Below, piece after piece: positions 1 through 23,230 of a stretch of DNA of 64,000 nucleotides. Every line of letters begins with the position of its first letter. Within the stretch, counting starts at the first letter, position 1. The notes beneath the pieces are model-generated. The model worked only from the letters and a program-made list of their open reading frames with translations. It did no database searches and had not been told where the DNA came from. A program made the position numbers and the translations under genes. Source of the DNA: Prorocentrum cordatum (lineage: Eukaryota); contig CAUYUJ010000181.1 of NCBI GenBank assembly GCA_963575745.1, positions 186,001 through 250,000 of the forward strand, written 5' to 3'.

Positions 1-2568
1 CGGGCTGCTGATCAGCTTTCGCGTCACGGCATTCAAACGTCTGACTTGCAGATTGGTGGGCCCTTGAATTTTCTGAAGAGAGACCACGCATACCATGAGC
101 CAGATTTGGGTAAGAAGGGCATAGGCGAGAGCTCCTCGCAGGCTGACGAACATGTCGGTAATGAGTTTCGTGGCTTTGGCATCGGCCGCCGCTCCTGTAA
201 GTTCTGGGTGTGTGATAGGACGTAGTTGTTTGATATACTCGTCCTGGTCCATGATCACATCTCCTTGATCATTCTTAGTGTAGCGAACGGCGCAGTTCGT
301 ATATGTGTGCTTGTTGAGCTTGCATTTGCCAAACACCTTTTCGACGCGTTGTACATAGTCGTCTATATTTTTCTCTAGACCTGTCATGTTAATATCATCG
401 ACATGTTTTGCCGTCAGAAGGTCGTGGCTGAATTCAAATTCAGGATCGTAGCTGGTCGGTGTAAGTCCTATAGCTCGTGTGGTCGTACGAAGTTTGAGAG
501 AGAACGCTCTTGGAGCGTCCTTTGTACCCGTTCCTGGTTTGAGGCATCTAAGACAGTGTCGACTTTCGTCGTAGGATGAGAAGCCGGGTAATGTACGAAG
601 TACCTGAGCACTTCCTGGTGGAAGAGTAAAGCAAACCATGCGAGTTTCCTCGCCGGTGGCATGGGCAAGTTCCTCATAGGTCAAACCCTTGAGGAACGCC
701 TTATCGATATCCATGGATGCTAAGATCCACTCTGGATGGCATGCCGCTTCACTTGCCAGGAGTCGTTGGGACTGCCTTCGGGCGGTTCCCGAGAATGTTT
801 CCACATCAAAAGCCTCAGTATCCATAAATCCACGAAGGACCAGTCTGAGACGAATGGTTTTAACGTTCCCGGTACCCATCTTTACGAACTTCCACTTGTA
901 TACATACCTGGATGTCATGATGTTGGAAGCTTTGGATAGATCATACATCTCAAAGCATCGGTTATCAATCCAGATTTTGAGCTCAGTATACAAAGCTTCA
1001 CGAACCTCCTTTGGATGTGCTGCTATGTCGGCTTTGGTCAGTAGATCATCTTCTTTGACAACCGCAGCACGTTTAGCAGCAGAGGATACATATACTCTCA
1101 TCGTTGCGACCATGTCGGTATCGAGCTGTGCAAGTTGAGTCTGATCCAACACTATTTTTGACATTTCTGATGTAAAGCATAATTCAACGTAAGGACCATA
1201 TTCATCACTGTCAAGAGAGTAGCTCTCGTCGGTTGTGGTTGAACAAAGAGAGACTAGACAGGACTCACGTGATTTCGGCTCGTCTCCGAGCATATCTGAT
1301 GATATAATATCATCTTCGTCCACAAATGCTGAAACCAAAACACATTGGTCGGGCAGCATAGTTGTTGGGACGCAATAAAGATAATCATCGGTAATCGTCG
1401 TAGGATGAAGGTCCATACGTAGCTCGCCGTACCACTCTTCCAGCATCATAGCTTCGATATGGTGTTCCCAATTTTCCTCATAGATTGTCGACAGACGGCC
1501 TTCACTCGGCGATGCAGCATCTGGTGTGTCTGGAGAAGGCCTGTTTCCAGGCGACTCGTGTTCTCCAGACGTGTTGCTTGAATGCTGATATTGAACCAAA
1601 TCGTCGTGAAATCCTAAGGAAGGGACACGTGAAGTCAAGCATTGAATAAGTCTGGAGTGAGTGCTACCAGTGATCTGAGAAATGTTTAAGCCGGTGCCCA
1701 CACATTCGTAATAGTGGAACGCCGGGCTGATGTCGTTGTCATAGTGGATCAGCGTAGACCCGGTGGCGTACTTTACTGCAGGTAGGCTTGACACACTCTT
1801 AGCCAATCGAACTGCTACTACATGTTCTACTCGGAAGTAATTTCGTACGAGATACTGTAGTGCTAAGTGTACGCGCGGGTGAAACTTGCTGTCGTCTGAC
1901 AGATTAAGGTTTCCCTTGTAATCGGGGATATACCCGAAAACTTTGGCAGGTTTCCCTGCGCTGAGGTGTGCCACATAAGCAAGGACGGTTTGCATGGCCA
2001 TATTATCCATGCCAAGTTCCCGTGTGAGGAGACATTCGATGTATAGTGTGTGACGAGCATCAGGATACATCACAATTACCTCACGAGATCCTGCCTTGAC
2101 AACAATATGTCCTCTTTCAGGCACATTTCGGATCACCGGGAATGGGCCATTCCAGCCTCCATGGTCGTCCTTGGTGGCAGTAGGTCGGTGGTAATCGACC
2201 AAATCCCCTGATGAGTAGAGGCGAGCACCATCAGGAGTCGTCTTAGCCCTAAGAGCCCGATTTGTCTTGGCCACAGCAGTAGCCGGAGTTATAGCTTCTA
2301 GGCTGACTTCCCTTACACGACGTTCTCGTTCGTGTCCTGAAGTCTCGGGTCCCTTGGGAAAGTCAAGGGTATCGAGATCAGGGAGGAAAGAGGGCTGACG
2401 TCCTGTGTGTGCCTGATATGGCGATACTCCGTTATAAAACGTAAGCGCATTAGTAACGAAGATGCCTTCCGCCAATACTCTAGTGAATACAGCAAGGATG
2501 TTGTGTCGATTCAATTCTTCCTCAATCATGTGGAGAGCGCCTCTGATAATGCCGTTTCGTGACTCAAT
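1..2568 (-). CDS. Pol C-terminal part: integrase C-terminus, linker and copia-type reverse transcriptase (truncated by the window edge)
   Basis: Manually translated frame: SRYVYKWK..RLRLVLRGF, SMDIDKAFLKG, GTKDAPRAF, KHVDDINMTG, MDQDEYI, LRGALAY. Absent from the ORF track because it runs off position 1. Confidence 0.9.
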   Translation of the reverse strand, partial: MESRNGIIRGALHMIEEELNRHNILAVFTRVLAEGIFVTNALTFYNGVSPYQAHTGRQPSFLPDLDTLDFPKGPETSGHERERRVREVSLEAITPATAVAKTNRALRAKTTPDGARLYSSGDLVDYHRPTATKDDHGGWNGPFPVIRNVPERGHIVVKAGSREVIVMYPDARHTLYIECLLTRELGMDNMAMQTVLAYVAHLSAGKPAKVFGYIPDYKGNLNLSDDSKFHPRVHLALQYLVRNYFRVEHVVAVRLAKSVSSLPAVKYATGSTLIHYDNDISPAFHYYECVGTGLNISQITGSTHSRLIQCLTSRVPSLGFHDDLVQYQHSSNTSGEHESPGNRPSPDTPDAASPSEGRLSTIYEENWEHHIEAMMLEEWYGELRMDLHPTTITDDYLYCVPTTMLPDQCVLVSAFVDEDDIISSDMLGDEPKSRESCLVSLCSTTTDESYSLDSDEYGPYVELCFTSEMSKIVLDQTQLAQLDTDMVATMRVYVSSAAKRAAVVKEDDLLTKADIAAHPKEVREALYTELKIWIDNRCFEMYDLSKASNIMTSRYVYKWKFVKMGTGNVKTIRLRLVLRGFMDTEAFDVETFSGTARRQSQRLLASEAACHPEWILASMDIDKAFLKGLTYEELAHATGEETRMVCFTLPPGSAQVLRTLPGFSSYDESRHCLRCLKPGTGTKDAPRAFSLKLRTTTRAIGLTPTSYDPEFEFSHDLLTAKHVDDINMTGLEKNIDDYVQRVEKVFGKCKLNKHTYTNCAVRYTKNDQGDVIMDQDEYIKQLRPITHPELTGAAADAKATKLITDMFVSLRGALAYALLTQIWLMVCVVSLQKIQGPTNLQVRRLNAVTRKLISSP

Positions 2569-3100
2569 TTAAGTCGCGTGTTGGCCAGGTGCTCGGATAC
2601 GAAGTTCCGTGCCCTTATTGGCCATCATGGTTTTAGCGGCATCGTTATTCAGGGCGCCTTCTCCGTCTGAGTATAAAACTTTGAAGGGTCCATGATAGGC
2701 AATCCAGCAGTAAGTGGTAGGCGTCAATGATAGTGTCACGTTCTCTGTCGGAAATTTCTAGGCCTGCTGCCAGGCGAATACAACGATCCATAATATGGAA
2801 TATGGTCCGTTTCTTGTAGAACATGAGGTCCATTCCCCCTTCATCGAGCCAGTTACCAGGAAGGCTCACCGATGGTAGTGTTGAGTTTCCTGGACGTTCC
2901 CATGCTCTGCATTCCCGACAGGTATCGCAAACTTCCTTGATCATGTTCAGTCGAACGTTATCAAGCCCCACCTTTTCGAGGATTCGCCTCATCTTTGGCT
3001 CCTTCGCATGATGCCATCGCAGATGCAGTTTTCGGAGTTCCTTTTTCACGACATGGGGTTCGTGACTACGGAGACTCTGTAGACTGTGTTGGATGTCGAA
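2100..3100 (-). pseudogene. Integrase (HHCC, DDE core, GPF C-terminal motif), with a frameshift at ~2713 and an in-frame TAA at 2569-2571
   Basis: LHLRWHHA...CDTCREC; MDLMF; LYSDGEG; HAT*IESRNG; GVSPYQ; GDLVDYHR...GGWNGPF, read by hand across frames. Confidence 0.85.
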
Positions 3101-3789
3101 TCTTGTCCAGTCGGGTAGTCGAGGAGCCCCAGAGCCGGTGGAGGCAAGAGGGTTCCTTGTAGCTCTCCGTAGTTGGTCCCCTGTGTTGACTGCGTCTGGA
3201 GGTGGTGGTACGCCTTGTAGACGGCCGCGGCGGGCCGCTACCTGTGGCGCCTCGCTAGAAGACGCGGAAGGCGTGTTTCCACGCTCGGGGGCGTCTCGTA
3301 GCATGTCGTAGCTGCTGGCACCAGATGTCGGATCGACGTTACCGAAGGATCGTGGTCGTGGTGGCCTGGCGTGTGCGCCTTGACGGCCACCTGAAGCTGA
3401 AGCTTGGCCCTCACCAGGTTTAGGTAAGGGTTTCCACCAAGCTGGCACGGTTTTGCCTTCGGGGTCGTGGTCGTCTGGGTTTAAATGGTTCAGCAAAACG
3501 ACATTTACCAGGTTCGGTATCGAGGTGGTTCTTAACACCCTTGCTTCTCGTAAGATCCCTCTGACATGCTGGACATGGCCAATATACAGAGATGGAATCA
3601 TGATATTTACACTGCGTAGGGTCTCTGTTATGGCTAGGACTGTCCTTTCTGACGTTGTCGATGCATGCCGGGCAAGTAGCCACCTTTGGGATGATACGAT
3701 CACCGATGCGTCTCACACCTTCGCCTGGTTCGGCTTGATCGGGAAGGTCTGCAGGATAAGCATGTGCGGTGCTTATAGGCGCGTTTCCG

Positions 3790-5793
3790 CGCGTGGCGTC
3801 AATGGCTTTCGCCAAATAGACGGCTTCCACGAAGGCAGACTGCAATCGTCGAGTGTATTTTTGTGCCAGTGAAAGCTCTGTATTGCACGGTTGTGCGTGC
3901 ACATGCTGACCGTTGCATTTGAGTCGCTCAAAGGGTTTAAGAATTGTCTCGTTGTTGCTGGTGATATGTGTCGGCTTCTTAATATAGTCACCAGTCGTAT
4001 CTTTAAGTCCCGTAGCGCATTGGTCAATGCGTACGGTTGTAATGTGTGGTCGGTTGGCAAGCATCGTCCATGGAGAAATATCATCCACCCATGTTCCTGT
4101 AGGTTGTTCGCGTATAAACCACCTCCGGGCGTCATCTTGGGTTACAGCAATTTTACCACAATAAATTATGTGTGGTGAGTCTTCTTTATGGTGCTGTTCC
4201 CAAGTGTTGTAGTTGACTTTGTAGTTGTAATAGGATGGTGGTCCTGTGGTGCGGCAGCTGGGTTGCAGCATGGCAACTCGTACGTAGCATATAGCAAAGT
4301 AATGATCTATAACCTGCTGTACCGAGGGGTCTCCCAGGTCGACATATGTAGTCTTGTCCAGGTTGCCGCCTGAGGAAAGTCCCCATTGAGAAGACAAGCT
4401 CTGAGATGCCACCCTCACCGCCACAAAGCTCCAACATATCCACGCAGTTGTTATGACCATAGCATAGTGTAGCAACTATGCTGTATATGTTAGCGTGTGT
4501 GTCGGGCATAGATGTGGGGAGGGTAAGGAACAGGTCATCGTCCTCGTCGGAGCTTATCAGCTCAACAGGGACGTCAGTACTCCAGGTTGCCATAAGATCC
4601 TGTCCGAGTCCTGACAAGTCGTCGCCGCAATCATCGTTTCCGTCTTCAACGTGCTTTTTAATGCGGCGAGGCTTGATGCCTGCTTCCTTTTCGGCTTTGA
4701 GCCTCTCCTTCTGCTTTATACGCGATTCAGTGGGTAAAGCTTGCTCGTCTTGTTCGTCGGTCTGTGTACTCATTGTCGTGGTTGAATGGGTACATGCGTC
4801 AATCGCCAGAGTCGGGAGGGGGAGAGAACAGTCATCTATGATGACGCGTCGATGTTTCTGTGGTGATTGAGTCGGCTCGTTTCCGAGCAAGACCGGTTCC
4901 TCGGGTTGCCAATACAACCGAGTACTGATGTTGGCAACCCCTGCAGGTAATGGTGCATGCCAATCATATCCTGTTGGTTGATCGGTAACTGAGATATCCT
5001 GAATAACCGCATTGGTATCCAGGTTGATTGTTACACGTCGGATGACTTCAGACCATTTTGGTCCTCCCTTATTAGTCGTCACGTAGTGACGGGTGTTATG
5101 GTCTGTACGTGTATACGTATTTAAGTATACGGGCACGTTTCCGTGCGTGGTGGTGCTCCCCAGGATGTTGTCGTTCAAGTGACGGATGAGTGTAGTGCGT
5201 GTCTGAGCTCGCCATTCAGCATGCCGCACTGCATGGCCGTACCAATCCAACACATGTTGTGGTATTGCCTGCTTACAGGTACATGCCCACAGCTTCGAGC
5301 TAATCGGTATTGATGATGCTACCTGCATATAAGTACCGCTTGGTGTAATGTCTTGCATATTGAACCGAATACCGAAATGACACAAACGCATCCGTATTAC
5401 TGACAACTTTAGATCTTCCAGGGTATCACGTACTGGAGATAACTTCCAAACATATCCTGGGGGACCAAATATTATGATCTTCATGCGGAGTTTCTTGGCT
5501 TTTATCAACAGGTTCTGGATACGTGACCAATGTGGGGCCACTCTCTTTCCTGGAGTTCTTACGTACCAGTCACCCGGAGTACTGATCCATATGAGAGTGT
5601 AATCTCCACTGATCACCGCACCTAGGTAGTTTGTGCCCACGCTTGTCATAAGTTCGTTGTGGGAAATACGATCACAAATATAACCTCGTGTGCGAAGGTC
5701 GGCACATGCCTCCCTCGTATCTTCAATGACAAAAGCCCTCTTACTAAGGCAGGTTACCCCGCTGTCCTTGTTACCCCCCGGCTTTTCAGCCAA
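3790..5793 (-). pseudogene. Two DNA cytosine methyltransferase-like domains (degenerate copy ~5250-5740; second copy ~3800-4445 with a frameshift near 4380)
   Basis: Second copy: DMLELCGGEGG (motif I-like), LQPSC (IV-like), REQP (VI-like), DQC..G..KKPT, CxxxHxH, AQKYT (X-like). First copy: LIWISTP, IFGP, RLCHFG, CTC..HV. Confidence 0.7.
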
Positions 5794-5832
5794 CAGGCAA
5801 GACGACGAGGGGGCGACGTCGCCCTGCCATCT

Positions 5833-8256
5833 TCAAGATGAAGAAGATGTGCCTGCAATATCTGCCAGCATCTGGGCTTCCCTCAGATGCTGGAGCTCAG
5901 CGCTGCAGCGCGCCGTGGCCTCAGAGGCGGATTGCTCCGCAAATGCTGTCAGCATCGATGGATTATCCATCAGCTGTTTCAGCACGCCTTTGGACCTAGC
6001 GTCGCTGACCGTATGCAATTCACGATTAGTGTATCCCATCACTATCTTACGGCGGGACTGTACAGCGTCCATGGGTACACTTCCACCATGCTGTGCCAGT
6101 GTCCTGGCAACAAAACAATCGAACGTCTCAAGATCGTCGATGGTGTCGCCTCGTTTGGTGGCCTTGGCGAGTGTCTCCATCAACCCCTGAGGCAGGTTTC
6201 CCTGCAATTGCTCGCGCTCCTGCGCCGGGGTCGGCTCGCCCGTCAGCACTGTCTGAAATGGCGTGCTGCTTGAGCTCGAGGCGGGTTGCCCCGCAGCTCC
6301 AAAACAATCACACCTGATCGACAGATGCCCTGACGGCAACTTTGTCGTCGGCATGATCTTGGAGCCCTCAGGGAGCTCCATTTTGACCTGCCCCTTACCA
6401 GGGAATATCAGCTTCTCCTGGCCTCGCTCAAGCACGATGATCGTGCGTTTATCTTGCATACTATCGAGGCCTAGGATGGCTGGCAGGTCCTTGCCACAGC
6501 CTGACACAATGTTCGTCTTGTATGAATCGAGTTGGGCCGACCCCTGGTACTCGCAGGCAATACTGAATGTGCCTACGGTATCCGCTGGGGCCGACCCTTC
6601 TCCCACTCCGTTGATATTCAAACGAGAGCGGGGCTCGAACGCACAAGTGCGGCCATGTACCTCGGCAGCCTGGACGAACTTACGGCTCGTGTTCTCGCCC
6701 ATGATGTTGATCTTCGAACCGACATCGATGAGTATGGAATTTCCACCATCATCCAGGAACGTCTTACTCGGCTGCTTGATGTGCACAGTCTCTGAAGTGT
6801 CGGCTGTGTCGGTAGGCGGGTTTCCCCGCGGCACAGTCGCACTCCCTAGCGGGTTACCCCGCCTGACACTGGCATGCGACTCGCTTTCGGCCATGCGCGC
6901 CAGGTCGATGTACTGGAAGTACGACACGTGCTGGGCGTGATCGCCACGCTCCTCCCGCCAGTTGGCATACTCATCACGTATGCTCTTATGCTGCTCGCGG
7001 GTCGTGCGCCTTGTCAACGTCAAGTACGAGTGAAGGGCGATGTCTTGCAGCCCCTCGTTCGTGATGTGATCCCGGTACTGCAGCCACTCCTCGAACTCCT
7101 CGTTCGTCGCTGCGATGTTGACGGCCCTGGCTGCTGTTGCTGCTGACGCCACTGAGGATTCTGATAGGTCTAGCGACGGACTATCAGTTTCAGGGTTGTT
7201 GGCATCCAGCATAAATGTTGTGTGCGTATTATCCATCTGATTCTGGAAATGTCGTACACGCAATTCACGCAGCTGATCAGGGTCCAGTGCCATCTCAGCC
7301 CCGTCTCCACTCTGGGGAGACATCTGAGGAGTACCATGCAGGTTTCCCTGCTGAGGCGCCGTCATCGGGATAAGCTGATCAAAGTATCCCGTCTCCATAG
7401 GCGGCCTTACCTCTTCTGGCAGGTGTCCCTGCTGTTGGGACTGGGCTGTCTGCATAACTAGCATCCCAGCCGTCATCTCCTCCACCATGCTCCTCAGCTC
7501 CCGCAGCTCTCTCGCTGACTGCTCAGGAGTCTGACTAAAGGAGCCGGTCCATGGGAAGGATGATGCTATGATGCCAGGTGCTCGGCAGATAGCACATGGT
7601 GGCTGCTGGGGATCTCCTTCACGCTGGTTTGTAACGTGGCCCACCACATTAGAATTCCAGCATCCCTCGTGGAACAAGTGATTGCACCTCAGGCGGTAAA
7701 CACTGTCCCTGGGCTGAAATTCTTCGAGGCATACCGCGCAGGTATCTTCCATCCCAGTAAAGACCTCTACGTCTGCTGCCCTGGGATATACCCGCCGCTG
7801 CCTCTCCAGTACCGTCTCGGAGGGCATGAAGGCTGATGGGGGAGTCCCCGTTAGATCCATCACCTCCGGCACTTCGACATTTGGCATGGAAGTGGTAGGA
7901 GTCACGGCGGGCGAGTTACCTCGCAAAGGTGAGCCCCTGTTTCTCACCACATCAAGTGCAGCTGCACGTGACTGATCCCGTACACTTTGCGCCGCCTTCC
8001 TTCTCCTGAAGCATGCCTGCTGAGTGTGGTGCGTCTGCCTGATGTAGTCAGGCACGCCCCTACTGCCAGACGATATTGAATGGGCAGTGGGCTGGACAAC
8101 CACCTCTGGTGATGTCGGTGAAGGCATGAAGGCCATGTGCGGGTACATGGAATGGTCACTGCAGCGCACATTAGTGAGGTTATGCATCTGATCCGCCAGT
8201 TCACGAACAAATTTGTTCGGAACCCTTGACCCATCAGGGTATAATGGCGGGTTCAT
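5833..8256 (-). CDS. Polyprotein segment: RING-H2 finger (~7580-7745) and retropepsin-like aspartic protease (~6310-6760)
   Basis: CAVCLEEF..RLRCNHLFHEGCW...CAICR (C3H2C3); ILIDVGSKINIMG ... INGVG ... PAILGLDSM. Confidence 0.85.
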   Translation of the reverse strand: MNPPLYPDGSRVPNKFVRELADQMHNLTNVRCSDHSMYPHMAFMPSPTSPEVVVQPTAHSISSGSRGVPDYIRQTHHTQQACFRRRKAAQSVRDQSRAAALDVVRNRGSPLRGNSPAVTPTTSMPNVEVPEVMDLTGTPPSAFMPSETVLERQRRVYPRAADVEVFTGMEDTCAVCLEEFQPRDSVYRLRCNHLFHEGCWNSNVVGHVTNQREGDPQQPPCAICRAPGIIASSFPWTGSFSQTPEQSARELRELRSMVEEMTAGMLVMQTAQSQQQGHLPEEVRPPMETGYFDQLIPMTAPQQGNLHGTPQMSPQSGDGAEMALDPDQLRELRVRHFQNQMDNTHTTFMLDANNPETDSPSLDLSESSVASAATAARAVNIAATNEEFEEWLQYRDHITNEGLQDIALHSYLTLTRRTTREQHKSIRDEYANWREERGDHAQHVSYFQYIDLARMAESESHASVRRGNPLGSATVPRGNPPTDTADTSETVHIKQPSKTFLDDGGNSILIDVGSKINIMGENTSRKFVQAAEVHGRTCAFEPRSRLNINGVGEGSAPADTVGTFSIACEYQGSAQLDSYKTNIVSGCGKDLPAILGLDSMQDKRTIIVLERGQEKLIFPGKGQVKMELPEGSKIMPTTKLPSGHLSIRCDCFGAAGQPASSSSSTPFQTVLTGEPTPAQEREQLQGNLPQGLMETLAKATKRGDTIDDLETFDCFVARTLAQHGGSVPMDAVQSRRKIVMGYTNRELHTVSDARSKGVLKQLMDNPSMLTAFAEQSASEATARCSAELQHLREAQMLADIAGTSSSS

Positions 8257-8280
8257 CTGCGCTGGTGGTGGCCTCTGGCC

Positions 8281-11200
8281 CTAAGACATGCTCGGATGGG
8301 CATTGAACGCCGGGATAAAGGCTCGTTGCCGAGCAGGATCCCGCGGGTTGGGACCCTCAGGTTCACAGGACCAGGCTGGCCTCCACCTCTGCCCACTTGG
8401 GTGAGGCAGATTATGGCTCTGCACCTGCTGCACCGCGGCCGCCACTCTTGAGCGATAGTCGTCAGGTACACCAGCCCTATGGTGGCTTGGTGTGCCAGGC
8501 AGGTTTCCCTGCTGACTCGTTGGCGTGCCGGGCGGCATCATGTTGAGGAGAGCTGTGCTGTGTTCAGCCCTAGCCGCAGCTATCCTTTCCATGAGAGTGC
8601 CGTTTGTGGCAGGGCGGACAGGTGTCCCGAACGGGGATTGCGCAGGTGGTGTGCCCAATGGAGTCATGCCCCTTGGAGTGTGCATGCTCTGAGTGGGGCT
8701 TCCATGCATTTGCTCAAACCGAGCAGGTCCGCTTGTAGGCAGGTTTCCCTGCATGGCCTGACGATTTCTCGTTGCCATAGCGGACATTGCCCCCTGGCCT
8801 GCGGCCCAGGGGTCCTGCTGGTATAACCTGTCCGCCAGCTGTTCTACCTGGTCAGGGTTCAGCGCGGCTGCGATCTGATCCAGGTCCGAGGTACTGATGG
8901 CCTGCCAAGACACGGCACTAGGCCCTTGGCTTGGGGCACGGCTTGGAGCCGCGCTCCCGGCCTCACTCTCGGTGATCATGAAGATCCGATGGATCTCAGG
9001 CTGGTTTCCCAGCTTGGTAGGGCTATAGTGGTCCCCAACTTCCCTGTGGAGGTAAACCATAGGGGGGTCAACACCCTCTTGGTCTCGGGACCACTGGTAT
9101 TTAATGCTAGCAGTGCCAACGTCAGCCCACCTGTCAGGAGCAGACATCATTGCGACAGAGACTCGCGCATGGCGGTTCCCCAGATACTCTGGATTACGCC
9201 AGTGCCTTCCCGTGGACAGGTCCTCTACATGAGAGATGTAGTACGCTTCAATGATACCGTTATTTCCCTCGGACAAGAGGACTCCGTTATCGGACCAACA
9301 GAACTTCATACCATCTTGTATGGCCTTACGCCAATCTACGAAGATGATGATGTCTGAGTCTGGGTCCCACCCACTGTTGACGGCACGGCGGCGAACTGTC
9401 GGCACGGAATGAATGTGCGACCGGCCTGTCCATCTTTTCTTCGTGTTATGCTCAGGTCTACAGGACAGGCCGTGCCACATAATACCTTCGAAGGCGTGCC
9501 ATCGAGTGCCATGCATGGCCACTTCGGGGTATGGGGCCGGTCTCCCGGCAGGTTGGTCGCACAGCATAATGTAGCTGTACAGCGACCATGGAGCTTTCAA
9601 TGTCCATGAGTGCCCCTGAGAGGCGCGGATGAAGATAGCGGGCTCGCCGGAGTCCTGCATCAACACCTTGAACTGTAGGCGCTGTTTTTCTTCTCCGTCT
9701 GGTTCGCGGACATGAACAACCTCCATCATGATGGCTGCTAGTTGGTCAACCGAGCGCCCATATAGCTGCTCGTTGATGACTTTGGCCTCGTCATATTTTG
9801 GATTATACCCAGCGTGTTTTGATTGACCTGTGTTCCACGGATAATGGTTCACGAGCTCCACGAGGTTAACCCAACCATCATGATCATCGAAAGATTCCAG
9901 GCCCCACACAGGATTGTGTGGTCTGTCTGGCGCATGTCTGCATATCCTGCTGAGAGCTTTACTCAGCTGTTTGAGAATGTCATTTGATGTGGGAAGGATT
10001 CCAGCTTTCCTGCATTCCTTCATGAATGTCTCATCCACCGAGCGTATCGGTGGGATCTTCCGAAGCGAAATTCTATCCCTGATCACATTCGGAGCCCCAC
10101 TAGTGAAGGACGTGTCACCTGGGTGGTGCAGCTGATCCACTGGCGGGTTTCCCCGCATACGAGCCTCTGTCGCTGCAGAGGCTGCGGCTCCTGAAGAGGA
10201 TGAAGCTGCGGCGGCAGCGCCTGGCGGGTTTCCCCGCGGTGATGCGCGACTGGCGCTGCCCCTGATCTTCGGCACCCAGGTACCCCTCGACATAGCACCT
10301 TCATCGGACTTCCTGGAACGGGCCGCCACAGGCGAAGCTGGCGCAGGGGCATACCCACTGCGCTCGAAAGCTGCCGCCCTTTTCGCAATGGAGCTGCTGC
10401 GACTAGGCGGGCGTCTTCGTTCCTCCACAGGGTCCTGAGGTTGCTGCTTGGGCTCAGACGCTTGTGTAGGAGTTGCGCCAATCGGCGGCCTCGGAGTTTC
10501 AGTTCGAGGCACCTCCATCTGCACGTCCGGCCCAGGGTCCTGAGAGCTCACCTTCGGTTTCGGCCCCGAGGACGGCTTAGGTGTCGGGGGTTCACTCTTA
10601 GCCTTCGAAGTTAGTGGGAGTGGGGGCTTCGTAGCCCCCTTCATGTAGATCTTGCTGGAATCCTCCAACATCTTGCGAGTTGCCTCGCGAGTGCGTTCTT
10701 CTGCTGTCCGCATACGCTCCTCGTCCTCCGCCACACGTTGAGCCTTTTTCTCATCCTTGATTGTCGGTTCTGGTTGTTGGGACTGGCTAGAAACGCCAGG
10801 CGAGTTTCCTCGCATACTAGGAAGACTAAAGAGCGCGTCTTTCTCTTCCTGGGTCGTGGCTACCAGTCCCCTTGGAACCGGAGTAGGCTTCTCTTCTTCT
10901 TTCAGATCCAAGTGGCTCAAGATCCCGAGACGACGATTCACTGCGGCGATCTCGTCTGGTGTCATCGGGATAAGTAGCGGATGACCATCTTTGTGAAGGG
11001 TTTTGCCCCGGTTGGGGCTCAGGCCTTCGTTGTTGCCAACGGGGCATCCTGGCCTGTGGTTCTGGAACGGCTCGGAACAAGGTCCGCAAGCTGCGTGGGG
11101 CCTATACTGCTTGCGAGCCGCGATAATGTCTCGCAGCTGAGTCCGCGCTTCTTGAATTTCAGGGCGGCGGATATTTGTTGCAAGCTGATAACCTCCGCGG

Positions 11201-13155
11201 ATGGCCTTGCCCTCACTATCCCTATAGGCAGGGTTGCCCTTGCCGAAGGCCGAGTGTTCCCCTTTTCGGCGTCTTGGATCGTTATATGGAAGTAGCTGGC
11301 CCCCTCTCCTGAGAGCGTGTTCTTTGGGGCCAGCCTGCCTCCACTCACGAGGAAGTCGAGCCTGTGGATGTGGCTCTTCTCTGACGCGCGTATGGGAACG
11401 AGACCTTCTGGTGTTCTCATCAGAAGAAGCTGCCGAAGCAGCAGGAGCGGCACCCGGTGGAGGTGCCTGAGGAGGCTCCTGTGCGATCCCAGATGGATCG
11501 TCCGATGGAGGCAGGTCTCCCTGCTGGATGGAGCTCTGCGCAAATGGCGCTTGTGCCGATGGTGATGATGATTCAGACTCGTCAGGATCGAAGTCAACCT
11601 CTTCCTCACCATTCACGTCCATCATGAGGATGGTGACGTCATCCTCATCTAACCCGCATCCATCGCCTTCTACTTCTTCTGATGTCGAACTACCGATGAT
11701 GATAGCCATTGGCGTATCTGGTACAGGCAGGTTTCCCTGCATAGCCGGCGTCTGTGCGTCGCTCGGCTGCCCCGGGGAAGGAGACGCTGTTGTCGGCTCA
11801 GGCTCGTTGCCGAGCACAGGCTGCCCGGCAATATTGCGCATGGCCGTACGGTTTGGCCACATTCCCACCGCCTGGAGACCCCATCCTGGCGGAGGAAGAT
11901 CATGACCGCGCATAGCAATGGCCATTTCTAGAGCATGACGCCATCTACCACGGGAGTATATCAGGTGTCTCTGCACGTCCTGAGGATGCACGCCTTCAAT
12001 GAGAGTCAGAGCTGCCAACAACAGCTCTGAGCTACCACAAGCGTCAGTATCCTGCATTATCATAATGTCAGCTTCGATATGTTCTTGACTTTCAGGATAA
12101 CCAGTAATAAGTATCTCATGCATCCTCATGAGGGTCTGCACAAGGGTGCGTGGTCCATATTCGCCTGGAGCAAGCGAACCAGGAGGTATAAACGGAGTAT
12201 CTGGTTCGCCTGCAATGAAGGCCTGAACAAATGCCTGAGACTCCATTTCGATTAAGTCTTCAGTGGTCTGGGGATATTCTCCCATCAAAGAAGGCCTGTT
12301 TCCAGGCGGGATTTCGGGCGGAGGTTCGAGGTGTCGTTGAACCTCGGAAGGCGAAGCTTCTATAGTGGTGTCCTCGTCGCTACTCTCGTAGGCCATGATG
12401 TTGCCTGGGTTCCCGAACATCCAGTCGAAGAAGGATAAAGGGTAATTTCCCAGCGTCCCGTGTTCCACGGGAGTGAGCTCGTTGTTGCCCTCAACGAACC
12501 TGCGAACGTACTCGAGGTAGTACGCGTACAATCCATGACCATACGCCTCGAGCTCGTCGACGTTGTCCATGCCAACAACCCAAGTGACAAATATCTGCTC
12601 CATAGCCTCAAAGTCCTGGAGGCTCAGATACTCAATGAATGGTTCACTTGAGCCAAAATGGACTTCGGTCGACCTGCCCTTTCCATTTCCCTTCACTGGA
12701 CAATCTCGCACAAGATGATCGGTACTATCACATTCATGGCATTTAAGAACCTGGCCGTCTCTACCTCGCGGGTTTCCCCGCCTACCTTTGCCTTTTCCTG
12801 AGGTCTCTCTACGGCCTTTACCACGGCCCTTTCCCCCAAAGAATATCTCATCATGTTGTTCATCTGAGAGCCTCTGGAGAAATGCCGCGATGCCTCGTCC
12901 GTTCAACCTCCGACGACCTCGCTTACCTTTACCTTTTCCCTTAAAACTTCTCCGTGTCCTCCTTCTAACACGACGCACTGGTTTTCGTGTGAACCTCCTC
13001 CACCTTCGTTTAGCCTGTTGTAGTAACCAGAACAAATGTTCAGCACGCTGATTGTCGTTATCCATATTCATGATATCTGACCAATCTAAAGCTTCAACAC
13101 CATCTGATGATATAGTGTCTGTATCGGTGCCGGAGTCGAAATCCTCGTCTCCCAA
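8281..13155 (-). CDS. Gag C-terminus (CCHC Zn knuckle) fused in frame to cargo including a Tpt1/KptA NAD-dependent RNA 2'-phosphotransferase domain (~9220-9980)
   Basis: GKGKG-rich tract and CHECDSTDHLVRDC. Tpt1 motifs: LSKALSRICRH, DGWV, KQRL, IRASQGHS, HGT, GRSHIHS, SDNGVLLSEG..GII. Confidence 0.88.
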   Translation of the reverse strand: MGDEDFDSGTDTDTISSDGVEALDWSDIMNMDNDNQRAEHLFWLLQQAKRRWRRFTRKPVRRVRRRTRRSFKGKGKGKRGRRRLNGRGIAAFLQRLSDEQHDEIFFGGKGRGKGRRETSGKGKGRRGNPRGRDGQVLKCHECDSTDHLVRDCPVKGNGKGRSTEVHFGSSEPFIEYLSLQDFEAMEQIFVTWVVGMDNVDELEAYGHGLYAYYLEYVRRFVEGNNELTPVEHGTLGNYPLSFFDWMFGNPGNIMAYESSDEDTTIEASPSEVQRHLEPPPEIPPGNRPSLMGEYPQTTEDLIEMESQAFVQAFIAGEPDTPFIPPGSLAPGEYGPRTLVQTLMRMHEILITGYPESQEHIEADIMIMQDTDACGSSELLLAALTLIEGVHPQDVQRHLIYSRGRWRHALEMAIAMRGHDLPPPGWGLQAVGMWPNRTAMRNIAGQPVLGNEPEPTTASPSPGQPSDAQTPAMQGNLPVPDTPMAIIIGSSTSEEVEGDGCGLDEDDVTILMMDVNGEEEVDFDPDESESSSPSAQAPFAQSSIQQGDLPPSDDPSGIAQEPPQAPPPGAAPAASAASSDENTRRSRSHTRVREEPHPQARLPREWRQAGPKEHALRRGGQLLPYNDPRRRKGEHSAFGKGNPAYRDSEGKAIRGGYQLATNIRRPEIQEARTQLRDIIAARKQYRPHAACGPCSEPFQNHRPGCPVGNNEGLSPNRGKTLHKDGHPLLIPMTPDEIAAVNRRLGILSHLDLKEEEKPTPVPRGLVATTQEEKDALFSLPSMRGNSPGVSSQSQQPEPTIKDEKKAQRVAEDEERMRTAEERTREATRKMLEDSSKIYMKGATKPPLPLTSKAKSEPPTPKPSSGPKPKVSSQDPGPDVQMEVPRTETPRPPIGATPTQASEPKQQPQDPVEERRRPPSRSSSIAKRAAAFERSGYAPAPASPVAARSRKSDEGAMSRGTWVPKIRGSASRASPRGNPPGAAAAASSSSGAAASAATEARMRGNPPVDQLHHPGDTSFTSGAPNVIRDRISLRKIPPIRSVDETFMKECRKAGILPTSNDILKQLSKALSRICRHAPDRPHNPVWGLESFDDHDGWVNLVELVNHYPWNTGQSKHAGYNPKYDEAKVINEQLYGRSVDQLAAIMMEVVHVREPDGEEKQRLQFKVLMQDSGEPAIFIRASQGHSWTLKAPWSLYSYIMLCDQPAGRPAPYPEVAMHGTRWHAFEGIMWHGLSCRPEHNTKKRWTGRSHIHSVPTVRRRAVNSGWDPDSDIIIFVDWRKAIQDGMKFCWSDNGVLLSEGNNGIIEAYYISHVEDLSTGRHWRNPEYLGNRHARVSVAMMSAPDRWADVGTASIKYQWSRDQEGVDPPMVYLHREVGDHYSPTKLGNQPEIHRIFMITESEAGSAAPSRAPSQGPSAVSWQAISTSDLDQIAAALNPDQVEQLADRLYQQDPWAAGQGAMSAMATRNRQAMQGNLPTSGPARFEQMHGSPTQSMHTPRGMTPLGTPPAQSPFGTPVRPATNGTLMERIAAARAEHSTALLNMMPPGTPTSQQGNLPGTPSHHRAGVPDDYRSRVAAAVQQVQSHNLPHPSGQRWRPAWSCEPEGPNPRDPARQRAFIPAFNAHPSMS
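12647..12669 (-). other. Dinoflagellate spliced-leader relic inside the LTR element ORF
   Basis: Minus strand ACCGAAGTCCATTTTGGCTCAAG vs SL DCCGTAGCCATTTTGGCTCAAG; the 3' 15 nt are a perfect match (translated HFGSS). Confidence 0.8.
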
Positions 13156-13336
13156 GTAGGTGGATACACCGTCGGTTAGGGGGTTTGATTCCCCCCATAA
13201 AGAACGGTGTGGTTGTGGTTCTCTAGAAGGAGGGCTGGTTGCCCAGCTTGGTTGTGATCGATCCCCTGCTAATAAAGCAGTGGATTATCATGGGTCATCG
13301 GGCCATATGCTTGAGGGCCCGTTTCCAGGCTGGGCT

Positions 13337-14440
13337 TCAGTAGTCAGGGTAGAAATTTCCACTACCAGATCCCCTTCCCCTTCCAAACACAGATCCTATG
13401 TTACCAGGAGACCGTTCAGATAGGTGGCCTATCGAACGCATCCTCTCCAGCAACTCATCATACTGTTGTTGTGTTCGGGGCATTTGGTGATTGAGTGGCT
13501 GTAAGAGTTGCATGGCTCGCTGGTTGCCGACGCCTAAGGCGCGGAATAGGATAGTGGTTAGCAGTTGGAAGTTGGGAAGGTCGAATCCCACCGACTGTGC
13601 CTCAAGTCGGGCCATTTCGAATCGGGTAAGGGTGACATCGATTCGTTCCCCGTGAGGCACGTGGAAGTCGATGAGTTGTGTGCCGGAAGTGAGCTGTCGC
13701 TCATCTTCCAGGCGTTCGAACTTCATGCTTAGGAGGAACATGATGTAGGTCACTGGGTCGGTGTGGACCCCATCGATGTCAGCACCATAGTTTATAATGT
13801 CAGGCGGTACCCTCATGGCGAGTGTCCTCGCTAGGCCACCTAGGCCGCGTTGCATTGCGGCCGCTTGGGCCTGTGGCGTCATACGTCCGCTTGTAACGTT
13901 GAGCCATGCGTTGACCTCGTAAATGTACTCGCGAAAAGGTACATTACCTTGAGGGTCCCAATATGGGCCATGTGTTTGCCCATCGGTGCTGTTTTCTCCA
14001 CGACGCATGTGTCCGATTGCTGCCCCCAGCGCGAACCATATACTTGCGAAAACGACTAGCCCGAGAATGTGTAGAGAAGGACGGTTATTATGCGCGTTGC
14101 CGCGCTGGGGTAGCGCCTTGTCGAGTCTTCGAGGCGCTCTATCTGGCGGGTCTCCCCACCTCTGCTTCAAGTATTGCGCTGTTAGCTCGTTGCCGAGCGG
14201 TTGGTGGTAACGCAATGATGAAGCGTATATGGTACCAATCTGGTCGTCTAGACGTCGTACCTCTCGTGTAGCTTCTTGCTCTTGGATAGATCCTCGTAAA
14301 CGTACTGGGAGTGGTGGCGCAGGGTGGTAGGTGGTCACGAAGATCGTGCCGAAGAATATGAGGCTAAGAAGAGCAAGAGCTGACCACACGAGAGCGCGGC
14401 CAGCTCCGCTACCAAGTCGAAAGTGAGCCTGGTAACTCAA
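13337..14440 (-). CDS. Gag-like protein with two N-terminal hydrophobic segments (true start uncertain)
   Basis: GPYWDPQGNVPFREYIYEVNAW...QAAAMQRGLGGLARTLA resembles the capsid-like region of protist copia Gag; it lies directly after the LTR/PBS. Confidence 0.7.
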   Translation of the reverse strand: MSYQAHFRLGSGAGRALVWSALALLSLIFFGTIFVTTYHPAPPLPVRLRGSIQEQEATREVRRLDDQIGTIYASSLRYHQPLGNELTAQYLKQRWGDPPDRAPRRLDKALPQRGNAHNNRPSLHILGLVVFASIWFALGAAIGHMRRGENSTDGQTHGPYWDPQGNVPFREYIYEVNAWLNVTSGRMTPQAQAAAMQRGLGGLARTLAMRVPPDIINYGADIDGVHTDPVTYIMFLLSMKFERLEDERQLTSGTQLIDFHVPHGERIDVTLTRFEMARLEAQSVGFDLPNFQLLTTILFRALGVGNQRAMQLLQPLNHQMPRTQQQYDELLERMRSIGHLSERSPGNIGSVFGRGRGSGSGNFYPDY

Positions 14441-14443
14441 ATA

Positions 14444-14456
14444 GCATCCGATTCCA
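14444..14456 (-). promoter_or_regulatory. Candidate primer-binding site TGGAATCGGATGC
   Basis: TGG directly after the candidate LTR's terminal CA; loosely resembles the copia iMet PBS TGGTATCAGAGC. Cognate tRNA not identified. Confidence 0.45.
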
Positions 14457-14563
14457 TGATAGACATCGGATGGCAAATCGCGTCCATCGCTCTGCTGATA
14501 GTACACTATGAGGGGTGGACGGATAAGATAGGATAAGATCGATGTAATGATCTTTCCAGCACA
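14457..14563 (-). repeat. Candidate 5' LTR (~107 bp, TGTGCTGG...CTATCA)
   Basis: Begins TG, ends CA, and is immediately followed by TGG. Sequence to its right belongs to an unrelated degraded LINE. The second LTR is off-window, so this is unconfirmed. Confidence 0.55.
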
Positions 14564-14599
14564 TGGCGAACACTCGCGGCGTCCGGGCAAATAGGGCGC

Positions 14600-15400
14600 G
14601 CGTGCCTTGGGCCAAAGGCAACGGCGCGCGCGAGCTATGCTCCCGATACTATAACATCTCCCAAAGACCTACCCTTAAAGTCAGGCGAGCACGGTCCAAG
14701 TGGAAGGTGCGGATGGCAGGGAGTGGGCAGTGCTCCTCGTCCTTCTGCAGCCACGCGCCGAGGGTCTCCTCGTTTATGCCGCGACCTCGGAAGCTCTTTG
14801 CCCAGTATTAGGAAAAAACAAGCGCCATAAACACAAACTTTGGGCACTCCACGCGGATTTCTTGGATCCGCGCCAGATCCCCCTCCCCAGCGCGCGGAGC
14901 GCGCCAAAGGCGGCGCCGGAAGCGCCGCCGGGGGGGCCCAGCGCGGAGCCAAGAAATCCGTGCGGAGAGCCAGACGTTTATGATATTTATGGTTTGTTTT
15001 TTCTCCGAAGTGGGTCTTCAACCATTCCGCCATGTCCTTCACGTCCGCGGTGCCCTCGCCACCGTCCTTGAGAATCGCAGCAACAGCGCAACTCCTTCCT
15101 GGAGCGAGCCAGCAGATGAGCCGCCGGTTGAATTGTCGGGACCGTCTGCGCTCTGAGCGCGTCCTCGCTGCCGAGGTCATCGCGAGAACGCTGGAGCTCG
15201 TCAAGCGCATGCTGCTCCGCCAACCGGACGGCGGAGTTGCGCGGCTGAGCCAGCTTCCTCGTCAAGCTACTCTGCAGATCGGACGGGCCCGCCACCTGCG
15301 ACCTGAGGACCGGGAAGCGGGACAAGCAGAGACGGACCTCTTCCGGGCCTGGCTCTCTCGATGGCTCGTGCCGACTGCACGGTCAATGCCAGCTTGTCCT
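14600..15400 (-). pseudogene. Degraded LINE ORF2 fragment (EN-RT linker) interrupted by a MITE
   Basis: LAPGRSCAVAAILKDGGEGTADVKDMAEWLKTH joins WAKSFRGRGINEETLGAWL when 14807-15008 and one AGT copy are removed. Confidence 0.55.
14807..15008. mobile_element. MITE family A (inner TIR CTCCGCGCGGATTTCTTGG); related copies ~46317-46413, ~54900-55055, ~58205-58385
   Basis: Long imperfect inverted repeats and AGT duplicated on both flanks; removal restores the host reading frame. Confidence 0.7.
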
Positions 15401-15433
15401 CGGCATCTTTGAGGGGCCCTGGGACACGCAAAT

Positions 15434-16003
15434 TATCCCAGTGCGACCCTACCTAGGAGTTGGAACCCGTAGGAAAGCAGCATTAGTAGTAACAGTAACG
15501 CTGAGCTACTAAAGCTAAGCTAAAGCTAAGCCACAGCTAAGCTAAAGCTAAGCTAAAGCTAAGCTAAAGCTAAGCTAAAGTTAAGCTAAAGCTAAGCTAC
15601 AGCTAAGCTAAAGCTGAGCAGCAGCTAAGCTAAAGCTAAGCTGCAGCTAAGCTAAATCTAAACTAAAGCTAAGCTAAATCTAAGCTAAAGCTAAGCTAAA
15701 CCTAAGCTACAGCTAAGATACAGCTAAGCTCAAGCTAAGCTCAACCTAAGCTAAAGCTAAGCTAAACGCTAAGCGAAAAGCTAAGCGAAACGCTAAGCGA
15801 AACGCTAAGCTAAAGCTAAGCTACAGCTAAGCTAAAGCTAAGCTAAACGCTAAGCTAAACGCTAAGCTAAAGCTAAAGCTCCCAGGGGACCGGGGGGAAC
15901 CGCTCCCAGGGGACTGGGGGAACCGCCCGGGGCGTGTTCCACTGCCCGGCCCCTTTAAGCTAAGAGAGTAAGAACCCTTCTAGGCAGAGCCTAGGTAGGG
16001 AGT
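15434..16003. mobile_element. Non-autonomous element with 11-bp subterminal inverted repeats and an internal (GCTAA/GCTAAA)n satellite; Helentron/DINE-1-like architecture
   Basis: CCCTACCTAGG 15447-15457 / CCTAGGTAGGG 15990-16000; hairpin CTAGGC-AGA-GCCTAG 15980-15994. It splits a dispersed repeat whose uninterrupted form is at 46144-46305. Confidence 0.6.
15505..15880. repeat. (GCTAA/GCTAAA)n satellite
   Basis: Direct reading of tandem AAGCT-type units. Confidence 0.95.
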
Positions 16004-16935
16004 ACATACACACAAATAAAACAAATCCCCATATTTTCCCATATTTTCTGGGTTTTTGTCTTCCCCCCCATTTCCCATATTTTCCGATATTTTCTGAAAA
16101 TCGCCGATGAATTGTGTCTGTGTGTTGCTTTCCCTCCTGAATCTTGCGCCGTCGTCGCAGCCTTGAGATCGTTCTCGAGGCGGCGGGCCACCGTGCGCAC
16201 CGAGCTGTTGTACATCTGGAGCTTCCTCGTCGTCGCCCTCGCCCTCCTCGCTGTCATGGTGCGTGCGCTCCTCGGCGTAGGCGTGCTGCTCAGTGGTGTA
16301 GCTGGCCTCGGACCCCTCGTCCTCTTCGCCTTTCTCGGCGTTGGCGGCGCCGGCAGACTCGACTTAGGAGGGGGGCGCAGCGCGTGCCCCCTGCCAACGC
16401 AGAAGGGGTCCTCTGGGATGTAGTTGGCCCTTAATCATCAAGGGCTCTCCAAGCCAATGCCACGGCGGGGGAGCCACCCCGGCCGCAGGGGGCCCGGGTA
16501 GCTCTGAAGGCCTTGAGCAAAGCGCTTCGGCAAAGGTCAGGTCCTGAGCAGGGCCTCTTACTCCTCGGGCCAGTCGGGCGGTCGATAATGGCGGAATCTG
16601 GAAGCCGATGCATGCTGCTGAGGTTTGAAACGAGGTCGGGGCGCGGTGTAGAAGCACCGAATCAAGGCGACGAGGGAACCCGCGCGCCCCCGACGCACGG
16701 CAGGACTCGAGCCAACGCACCCTCCTGCCTCCTCCTCCTCCTCCGCCTTCTCTTCTTCTCCCATCCCTGAGGGGGCGGTCCCCTGCGGAGTCCTCCCTTG
16801 CGGCTCCCCGTACTCCAAGTACATGTGCGGCCCCGCCGCCAGGCGGACGCTATGGCTATGTCCGAGACCGCGACCTCGCCAGCTCGCCCGCGCCAGATGG
16901 CCGCAGCCTGGCCGCAGCCCTCCAGCCCAGCGCCC

Positions 16936-17830: not shown

Positions 17831-18242
17831 GCGCGCCCCGCAGGTGCTGGTGGCAGCGTTGGGACTTGGACCCACTCCACACACGGGGGCATCGGGCGCT
17901 CGTCAACCACAGCAGCCTGCCTCTTGCCAGGTAACGCTGGTCGCGTTGGCGCAGTCGCCCGAAGCCCACGCGTGCGTTTGTCCACAGCCGACTGCTGGCC
18001 CAGACGCTGCCATGCTGCAACTGCCTCGTCGTCCATGGGGATCAGTGGATGCCATAATGTGGCCAAGACATGCTCCCGTCGGGCGCCTGAGATGCCTTAG
18101 CAATCCTGATCGATCCGAGAAGCTGGCGCCACAACATAGGCAATCAACACCGTCAGCAAAGTACTGCGCCATGTCCTTTGGCTGGTGCACTCGAGTCCAG
18201 TGACCTCGATACCCAGCAACTGTTTGGAAAACCTGATCGCGC

Positions 18243-20234: not shown

Positions 20235-20321
20235 GGTCTCGGCCCACTCCAGCTCGGAGGTGATGACTGAACCGTCTTGCTTGAATCGCTGAGGAAGGAG
20301 AGTGTGGTCGCATCGCGTTGC

Positions 20322-21902: not shown

Positions 21903-21950
21903 GAAGCACGGATATGGTGATGTCGTCGGATTTAAAAACCTTGTAAACTG

Positions 21951-23210: not shown

Positions 23211-23230
23211 CTCTGGAGACCCAGCTGATG

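Follow-up and report, generated by a model that had tools for sequence, protein, structure and literature searches.

A Tpt1/KptA RNA 2'-phosphotransferase domain in the polyprotein of a giant Ty1/copia-like retrotransposon family from Prorocentrum cordatum

We analyzed a stretch of 64,000 nucleotides from Prorocentrum cordatum (NCBI GenBank assembly GCA_963575745.1, contig CAUYUJ010000181.1, positions 186,001 to 250,000 of the forward strand), hereafter the window, in which positions are counted from the first letter. Its minus strand carries a retrotransposon whose recognizable parts follow each other in the order gag-like ORF, putative CCHC zinc knuckle, Tpt1/KptA RNA 2'-phosphotransferase domain (Tpt1), RING finger, protease-like region, integrase-like motifs, and RVT_2 reverse transcriptase (RT), with an internal part that alone exceeds 14.7 kb. 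The apparent order of protease, integrase, and RT, together with the RVT_2 match, makes this element Ty1/copia-like. The Tpt1 domain (9265..9972, minus strand) covers residues 1105-1340 of an open reading frame (ORF) of 1667 amino acids (aa) that runs from stop to stop (8281..13284, minus strand) and also holds an Arg-rich stretch, the CCHC knuckle, and uncharacterised regions. A first reading of the letters, hereafter the original prediction, had placed an intact Tpt1/KptA domain at 9220..9980, in frame with a zinc knuckle inside a retrotransposon polyprotein. Both position and context hold: the Pfam match falls inside that range, the 1667-aa frame is free of stops, and the RVT_2 domain lies downstream on the same strand.

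The domain belongs to the Pfam family PF01885 (PTS_2-RNA), which is the sole match above threshold in the 1667-aa ORF. The match spans positions 4-177 of the 177 of the profile with an E-value of 3.4e-23, and its 83 bits are well over the cut-off of 26, so that the profile search advised along with the original prediction comes out clearly positive. A conserved stretch, TGRHWRNPEYLG, extends the domain at its C-terminus to around position 9202. When the domain was searched against the sequences of solved structures, the only two matches with E<=0.01 were human and mouse TRPT1 (E 2.5e-11 and 1.7e-9, respectively), and a profile made of the domain and 14 relatives matched 13 distinct structure chains, all of them Tpt1/KptA. 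The 30 nearest clusters in the ESM Atlas all carry PF01885. Since mammalian TRPT1 scores highest and these clusters are mostly from Eukaryota, the Tpt1 of the element is, as judged by sequence comparison, eukaryote-like. An AlphaFold2 model built with the alignment of relatives has a mean predicted local distance difference test score (pLDDT) of 83.4 and a predicted template modelling score (pTM) of 0.79. Searching it with Foldseek against the PDB gave 22 matches at E<=0.001, and all 19 of those listed were Tpt1/KptA, with mouse TRPT1 at the top (7yw2, E 3.5e-13, target TM 0.77); the catalytic domains of PARPs appear in the list only from E 0.02. The predicted model has the two-lobe fold, with a winged-helix RNA lobe and an ADP-ribosyltransferase NAD+ lobe. 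The GC content at third codon positions (GC3) of the domain is 0.60, inside the range of the element (0.40-0.63) and unlike that of the single recognisable host ORF of the window (0.75). Its composition fits the element and not this one host gene.

All the motifs quoted in the original prediction could be located on the minus strand: ICRH (9934..9945), KQRL (9676..9687), IRASQGHS (9607..9630), the HGT of the NAD lobe (9505..9513, residues 1258-1260 including His1258, invariant in the alignment of the domain and its relatives), RxHIH in the form GRSHIH (9409..9426), and SxNGVLL in the form SDNGVLL (9274..9294). The catalytic set of the 2'-phosphotransferase is reported to be Arg23, His24, Arg71, and Arg138 in yeast, equivalent to Arg40, His41, Arg86, and Arg150 in human TRPT1 (PMC10415124). 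We placed this tetrad by counting along the alignment to human TRPT1 (7yw3), with the residue numbers of the same article. Arg1116 and His1117 of ICRH align with Arg40 and His41, Lys1200 and Arg1202 of KQRL with Lys84 and Arg86, and Arg1288 of GRSHIH with Arg150. As aligned, the Arg-His-Arg-Arg tetrad is complete (R1116, H1117, R1202, and R1288). The original prediction had assigned ICRH and KQRL correctly but had taken the fourth residue from IRASQGHS, whose Arg is conserved and lies outside the tetrad.

Searched exhaustively, a set of 1.84 billion representative proteins yielded 715 matches with E<=0.001, 19 of them with E<=1e-10 and two with E<=1e-30; the best are short fragments with 44-85% identity. 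A word-indexed protein database returned 26 fragments that are 64-90% identical (one in the class of 150-478 aa and 25 under 150 aa), all labelled EukProt Pyramimonas_sp.AAC.1. None of 485 long candidate proteins (916-2918 aa) held a Tpt1 region. In the fragment P0008, the first 27 residues match the integrase/RT ORF of the window (76% identity, E 6e-15) and are followed by Tpt1; by its sequence, this is a rearranged copy that again ties Tpt1 to the integrase/RT ORF. There is also a distinct subfamily with 28-44% identity (P0004, P0013, P0016, P0018, P0020, P0047, P0050, P0055, and P0084), which shares the DGW, RLQxK, and GLSCRxEHN of the window and its TGRxWRxP tail. Within it, P0004, P0013, P0047, and P0055 (34-44% identity) keep K-x-R, the RA-x-x-G core of RAxQGH, and HGT, and all three of them that cover the site keep R1288. 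Scans for the DNA of related copies gave 8 and 157 pattern matches in two rounds on metagenome contigs and 17 on viral contigs, none of which was confirmed. A scan of genome contigs gave 18 matches and one confirmation (L001), which was dropped as an ordinary bacterial contig with a chance match of 26 residues.

Residue retention was counted over 37 aligned sequences, whose rows are not independent and whose ORF-called fragments are biased to open frames. The tetrad residues R1116, R1202, and R1288 are kept in 5/5, 20/20, and 16/16 of the sequences covering them, and H1117 in 4/5 (P0009 has a Tyr). Other sites are kept in similar fashion: K1200 in 19/20, R1220 and G1224 in 23/23 each, H1258 in 19/21, G1259 in 21/21, and S1331 in 12/12. 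The catalytic arginines are thus kept in 41 of 41 covered cells and the whole tetrad in 45 of 46, while the 18 tabulated sites together keep 270 of 309 cells and the mean identity is roughly 68%. The loss of catalytic residues, which the original prediction regarded as damaging, is not what we find in the sister copies and the distant relatives. Replacements of His by Arg are carried by P0156, P0157, P0159, P0160, P0164, P0166, P0168, P0169, P0171, P0172, and P0174; they correspond to CAY becoming CGY, i.e., A-to-G on the sense strand, and could stem from biased mutation of copies that are degenerating.

To place the element in its family, we used the contigs of four public runs (X1, X2, X3, and X8, labelled as three organisms and one marine metagenome), aligned on positions 1-15500 of the window at a minimum of 85% identity and summarised in 30 bins. 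All four runs cover all 30 bins, with 29134, 10843, 2853, and 707 records, respectively, and 9840 of the 29134 records of X1 are at least 99% identical to the window. Coverage of the Tpt1 bins resembles that of the other bins and amounts to roughly half the depth seen for integrase/RT; this depth is summed over words and does not count copies. The original prediction would have been weakened by a domain confined to this one copy; instead, the Tpt1 segment is present in many contigs of the four runs as well as in the 26 protein fragments. Among the position differences (40 of 1877 are listed), the TAG at 8281-8283 that ends the 1667-aa frame is CAG (G at 8283) in all covering contigs (24, 12, 7, and 8 in X1, X2, X3, and X8), and the stops TAA and TGA at 13285-13290 are GAA and GGA (C at 13287 and 13290) in all covering contigs of the four runs. 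The stops that bound the 1667-aa frame are private to the window copy. A 5-nt insertion behind position 13348 places the gag frame in the downstream frame; it accounts for around half the depth in X2 and X3 and for the entire depth in X8, and it is rare in X1. Without it, the downstream frame is +1 to gag and gag ends at a TGA. The private stops and this insertion imply that the open frame of the family is much longer than that of the window copy, and the family may exist in both a frameshift form and a fused gag-pol form. At position 9246, in the C-terminal extension of Tpt1, a base other than that of the window is found in 25, 7, 5, and 1 distinct contigs of the four runs, and the Ala1347 of the window is a Pro in the family and in the relatives P0154, P0014, and P0004. 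The window copy is a decayed member of its family, so the adjective intact, used in the original prediction, suits the motifs of the domain but not this copy of the element, with its stops and frameshifts. Sequence words of the element were detected in 20 of 24 listed runs from 16 studies, mostly marine, estuarine, and freshwater metagenomes, and one run contains half or more of these words; no RNA run with such words is among the 24.

The remaining parts of the polyprotein, all on the minus strand, can be followed from gag to RT. The gag-like ORF (443 aa, 13337..14668) has no Pfam match, and the next ORF is +1 relative to it. In the 1667-aa frame, the Arg-rich stretch KRRWRRFTRKPVRRVRRRTRR (12949..13011, with 36 of the 101 surrounding residues being R or K) precedes the CCHC knuckle CHECDSTDHLVRDC (12700..12741, residues 182-195), which shares the frame of Tpt1 with no intervening stop. 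The knuckle has the pattern CX2CX4HX4C and scores below the Pfam threshold (zf-CCHC, 15.6 bits vs 20.8). Between it and Tpt1 lie around 900 residues of uncharacterised and low-complexity sequence. After the single TAG, the frame continues for 815 aa (5833..8280) with a RING finger (7582..7740; zf-RING_11, 35.1 bits for a cut-off of 27; zf-RING_2, 28 bits for a cut-off of 27.3) and a retropepsin-like stretch, recognised by eye from the pair LIDVGS (6715-6732) and ILGLDSM (6457-6477). The RING finger is a second unusual accessory domain, with Tpt1 on one side and the protease-like region on the other. Past a TGA, the same frame holds an uncharacterised stretch of 548 aa (4186..5832), which matched only unnamed clusters of the ESM Atlas (best score 0.85). 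Three frameshifted ORFs then hold the integrase motifs and the RT. An integrase-like ORF (2645..3712) has, by eye, the HH (2996-3013) and CxxC (2900-2929) of an HHCC finger and the first Asp (2819-2836); the end of the putative integrase core precedes the copia-type RT in the last ORF (1..2568), and a Glu (IESRNG) was likewise recognised by eye upstream of the RT. This integrase region is frameshifted and unmatched by Pfam rve. The RVT_2 domain (PF07727, 313-960, E 3e-9, 37.3 bits for a cut-off of 31.6), with HVDD at 391-408, belongs to an ORF that leaves the window at base 1.

Pfam searches with E-values up to 5 on the uncharacterised ORFs of the element gave nothing credible, and a stretch resembling a C5-methyltransferase (ELCGGEGGIS ...), suspected by eye, was dropped because Pfam gave it no support. 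The direct-repeat families listed (20 of 35) include no pair of long terminal repeats (LTR), and the 3' end of the element lies outside the window. No tRNA gene was found in the window; in positions 1-16400, Rfam gave no family at the gathering score and only five weak matches with E<=1, all inside an 11-nt satellite. At 14639..14651 on the minus strand, a stretch like a primer binding site (PBS), TAGTATCGGGAGC, has TAG where TGG is expected; presumably, it resembles the copia PBS of TGGTATC type that pairs with the 3' end of the initiator tRNA. In the bin 14477-14993, the summed depth is several-fold higher than elsewhere (12669 vs about 3000 in X1, and 152 vs about 30 in X8), and contigs diverge at 14682, possibly at an LTR boundary or because of a second subfamily.

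The sense strand of the element, i.e., the minus strand, contains 30 perfect hairpins with a 5-bp stem and a GNAA loop, and 30 sites between positions 640 and 14198 fit the consensus GC-NN-G-GNAA-C-N'N'-GC. A pattern scan found none in antisense orientation and only two perfect GNAA hairpins in the remaining 49.3 kb of the window, neither of which matches the consensus. In 200 dinucleotide shuffles, the expected number was 0.19 on average and at most 2. The variable stem pairs are both Watson-Crick in 28 of the 30 sites and include one G-U in the other two; nine different NN pairs occur with pairing retained, hence the stem covaries. The two bases following the hairpin are C in 23 and T in 18 of the 30 sites, respectively. 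Four hairpins that were folded have energies of -8.6 to -10.2 kcal/mol, with z-scores from -2.8 to -3.8. In the coding frame, the hairpins read [QRL]GN[LPSE]P and fall mostly in linkers between domains; those nearest Tpt1 are at 10224-10237 and 10143-10156 upstream and at 9000-9013 downstream, where there is also an imperfect one, and the relative P0013 has RGNS at the corresponding place past its Tpt1. Contigs of X2 (depth 27.7) and X3 (4.74) reveal a rare variant that skips the segment of Tpt1 and RING (6806..10140, minus strand), and the letters at its joint 6806/10140 contain the hairpin. Several roles can be envisaged for these hairpins. The Arg-rich and CCHC region, whose Arg-rich stretch is a candidate RNA-binding partner, may bind them at their many sites along the RNA; the boxB-N pair of phage lambda and the psi loops of retroviruses would be possible parallels. 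They may also be points of template switching that make the domains behave as cassettes. Our literature search found no published counterpart of dispersed GNRA hairpins in retrotransposons, and they have no match in Rfam.

Outside this element, a tandem array at 15465-15880, with about 21 or more copies of an 11-nt unit like GCTAAGCTAAA, separates the copia-like element from a second run of long ORFs on the minus strand (16936-26280). The latter is probably a LINE-like element: it has an Exo_endo_phos match of 24.3 bits (cut-off 24.5) and a weak match to a RanBP zinc ribbon, and it contains no hairpin of the type described above. An 87-nt repeat is dispersed in five copies with 67-100% identity (15982-16068, 45027-45113, 46146-46232, 57865-57951, and 59294-59380). 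Pfam, run on 26 long ORFs located elsewhere in the window, identified a single gene, the ion channel at 60679-62700 on the minus strand (673-aa open frame, Ion_trans with E 2.6e-26 and EF-hand, GC3 0.75), which is the only recognisable host gene.

The domain resembles the cellular Tpt1/TRPT1/KptA (human 7YW3, mouse 7YW2, C. thermocellum 6E3A) in its match along the full family profile, its tetrad, its HGT and SxNGV motifs, and its predicted two-lobe fold. Whereas cellular Tpt1 is free-standing, with about 180-250 aa, the present one forms part of a larger retrotransposon polyprotein. It also differs from TRPT1, to which it is only 25-27% identical, by an insert of around 40 aa in the RNA lobe and the insert GLSCRPEHNTKKRW in the NAD lobe, both shared with the distinct subfamily, and by its C-terminal TGRxWRxP extension. 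Viral counterparts have been described (Iyer et al. 2022, PMC9503650): KptA/Tpt1 is reported in the polyproteins of Botrylloides leachii nidovirus and Beihai picorna-like virus, in Bodo saltans virus, and in sawfly nucleopolyhedroviruses, and its presence in the polyproteins of a few positive-strand RNA viruses is read as a means to clean up RNA ends that metal-independent RNases have attacked. The Tpt1 model matches pp1ab of B. leachii nidovirus (E 8.9e-11), three giant-virus Tpt1s (E 4.6e-13 for giant-virus Tpt1), and the Tpt1 of a sawfly baculovirus. As in these viruses, a genetic parasite whose genome has an RNA stage carries the domain inside its replicative polyprotein; unlike in these RNA or DNA viruses, its partner enzyme is an RT, which is inhibited by 2'-phosphates. 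The element is like Ty1/copia in its RVT_2 with HVDD and, as read largely by eye, in its apparent order gag-protease-integrase-RT and its putative CCHC knuckle. It is unlike Ty1/copia in its internal sequence, which exceeds 14.7 kb before the RT ends, its Tpt1 and RING domains, long low-complexity linkers, and about 30 sense hairpins. The closest precedents for the capture itself are the DNA methyltransferases (DNMT) of LINE and DIRS elements in Symbiodinium (PMC5890265), where a host-type domain that modifies nucleic acids is likewise built in with its key residues kept, and the MBD reported in arthropod Copia (PMC6673714), another host domain captured by a retrotransposon. These concern DNA methylation, whereas the target here would be an RNA 2'-phosphate or the ends of nucleic acids. 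Both the capture of domains by retroelements and the occurrence of KptA in viral polyproteins are already known. In the main texts searched, no description of a retrotransposon with Tpt1/KptA came up (PMC4053983, PMC3549820, PMC10275265, and PMC8782182, which contain the words retrotransposon and Tpt1, lie outside this scope). The words Tpt1, KptA, and phosphotransferase are absent from the main text of PMC5890265, as are Tpt1, phosphotransferase, and ADP-ribos from that of PMC6338049 and retrotransposon, retroelement, and reverse transcriptase from that of PMC9503650.

What could a retrotransposon do with such an enzyme? The original prediction put forward, as hypothetical roles, the healing of 2'-phosphorylated primer tRNA or genomic RNA and the capping of cDNA ends. 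Tpt1 would be translated within Gag-Pol, between the nucleocapsid-like CCHC region and the block of RING, protease, integrase, and RT. As part of Gag-Pol, it would be expected to join the RNA of the element, the primer tRNA, and the RT already during synthesis and assembly. It would most likely work like the cellular enzyme, which transfers the RNA 2'-phosphate to NAD+ (PMC6333775), and remove 2'-phosphates in a NAD+-dependent manner. Its substrates might be the internal 2'-phosphates left at junctions made by tRNA ligases of plant and fungal type, or terminal 2'/3'-phosphates, which some Tpt1 enzymes are reported to take off (PMC6573784). Either the long genomic RNA or the tRNA primer could be the target, and the outcome would be an uninhibited reverse transcription on a very long template, since reverse transcription is reported to be inhibited by 2'-phosphates (PMC5824351). 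Copia and Ty5 are described as priming from cleaved tRNA halves (PMC5371799), which would make the healing of the primer attractive. Retrozymes, which are reported to be circularised by tRNA ligase (PMC4918200), suggested a link to ribozymes; this was set aside, as no ribozyme was found in positions 1-16400 of the window. In human TRPT1, Arg86 is described as essential for the 2'-phosphotransferase and partly dispensable for ADP-ribosylation (PMC10415124). The retention of its equivalent, R1202, in all 20 covering sequences thus mildly favours the removal of 2'-phosphates.

This last activity has a competitor. Some Tpt1 enzymes are reported to ADP-ribosylate 5'-phosphate ends (PMC10415124), a reaction also described in PMC12678800, and the domain might act, as do mammalian TRPT1 and bacterial KptA, as a nucleic-acid ADP-ribosyltransferase that caps the 5'-phosphate ends of the RNA or cDNA of the element, or of host nucleic acids, with ADP-ribose. 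Such a cap could shield the ends from 5' exonucleases or alter their sensing; the stalling or block of Xrn1 by a 2'-phosphate (PMC6456296) is an indication that marks at the ends or in the backbone can shield RNA. The closest solved relatives are precisely mouse and human TRPT1, and the residues reported to be needed by TRPT1 for the ADP-ribosylation of nucleic acids, Arg40, His41, and Arg150 (PMC10415124), all have their equivalents here. However, the equivalent of Arg86, partly dispensable for that reaction in TRPT1, is kept in 20/20 sequences and the neighbouring Lys in 19/20, and Pfam detected no Macro, NADAR, or other ADP-ribose-removing domain alongside Tpt1 in the ORFs of the element. 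Sequence does not separate the two activities; we regard capping as the main rival, though one of low probability. A different concern is that a piece of a host Tpt1 was captured once and has been carried along without serving the element, its good state being due to recent amplification only. Much of the family is indeed young, given that about a third of the X1 records (9840/29134) are at least 99% identical, some copies show His-to-Arg decay, a variant without the Tpt1-RING module exists, and no long polyprotein with Tpt1 turned up elsewhere among the 485 candidates of 916-2918 aa. Yet recency cannot explain why a subfamily with shared inserts and only 28-44% identity keeps the catalytic signature, nor does it sit well with a tetrad kept in 45/46 cells against a mean identity of around 68%, and the composition fits the element and not the single host gene. 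We regard such idle carriage as improbable. Finally, a host Tpt1 gene joined to the element by an adjacent insertion or by misassembly can be practically dismissed, as it fails on the coverage data: many sequence-distinct contigs of the four runs cover Tpt1 with a depth like that of the rest of the element. The 1667-aa frame is moreover continuous, with element-type sequence and the hairpin motif of the element on both sides of Tpt1, and 26 diverged fragments exist.

We lean, by a little more than even chances, towards Tpt1/KptA being a genuine and long-kept accessory domain of a giant, highly repeated Ty1/copia-like family, in which it would be a conserved accessory enzyme that removes RT-inhibiting 2'-phosphates, with an activity, a packaging, and a substrate that we infer. 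Several observations weigh against this reading. The window copy is dead: stops interrupt it (8281, 13285-13290, and 5833), its integrase region is frameshifted, and residue 1347 has changed privately from Pro to Ala. Among sister fragments, His is replaced by Arg at H1225 in 5/23 (17/23 keep the His), at H1258 in 2/21, at H1290 in 6/16, and at H1292 in 3/16. These changes at conserved sites indicate that many copies are decaying, as expected of neutral relics. The rare variant devoid of Tpt1 and RING implies that an element may do without the module or obtain it in trans, and no contig was shown to link Tpt1 to the RT outside the window. In the polyprotein, Pfam found no RNA ligase, 2H phosphoesterase, Macro, or Nudix domain, and Rfam found no self-cleaving ribozyme, hammerhead or other, in positions 1-16400 of the window. 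The PBS-like stretch looks like a canonical site for a primer tRNA 3' end, for which the healing of the primer is not called for.

A bolder proposal, which we consider a long shot, is that Tpt1 and the hairpins serve one replication strategy: the RNA of more than 15 kb would be nicked or cut, either by RNases of the host or close to or at the hairpins, re-joined by a tRNA ligase of plant and fungal type, and cleared of its 2'-phosphate scars by Tpt1, so that the RT could copy the full template. If true, the gain and loss of the Tpt1-RING module as a cassette would also be accounted for, by joining or by switches of template at the hairpins, and the retroelement would depend on RNA repair chemistry. 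The wide presence of Tpt1 in bacteria is described as a long-standing conundrum (PMC6333775), and the role of the enzyme beyond the splicing of tRNAs in fungi and plants is an open question. A Tpt1 kept beside a polymerase that is inhibited by 2'-phosphates points to a concrete class of substrates, namely, 2'-phosphorylated template or primer RNA. RNA-repair chemistry would also join the short list of host functions captured by retroelements, in a family with abundant copies in marine metagenomes as well as in several organisms.

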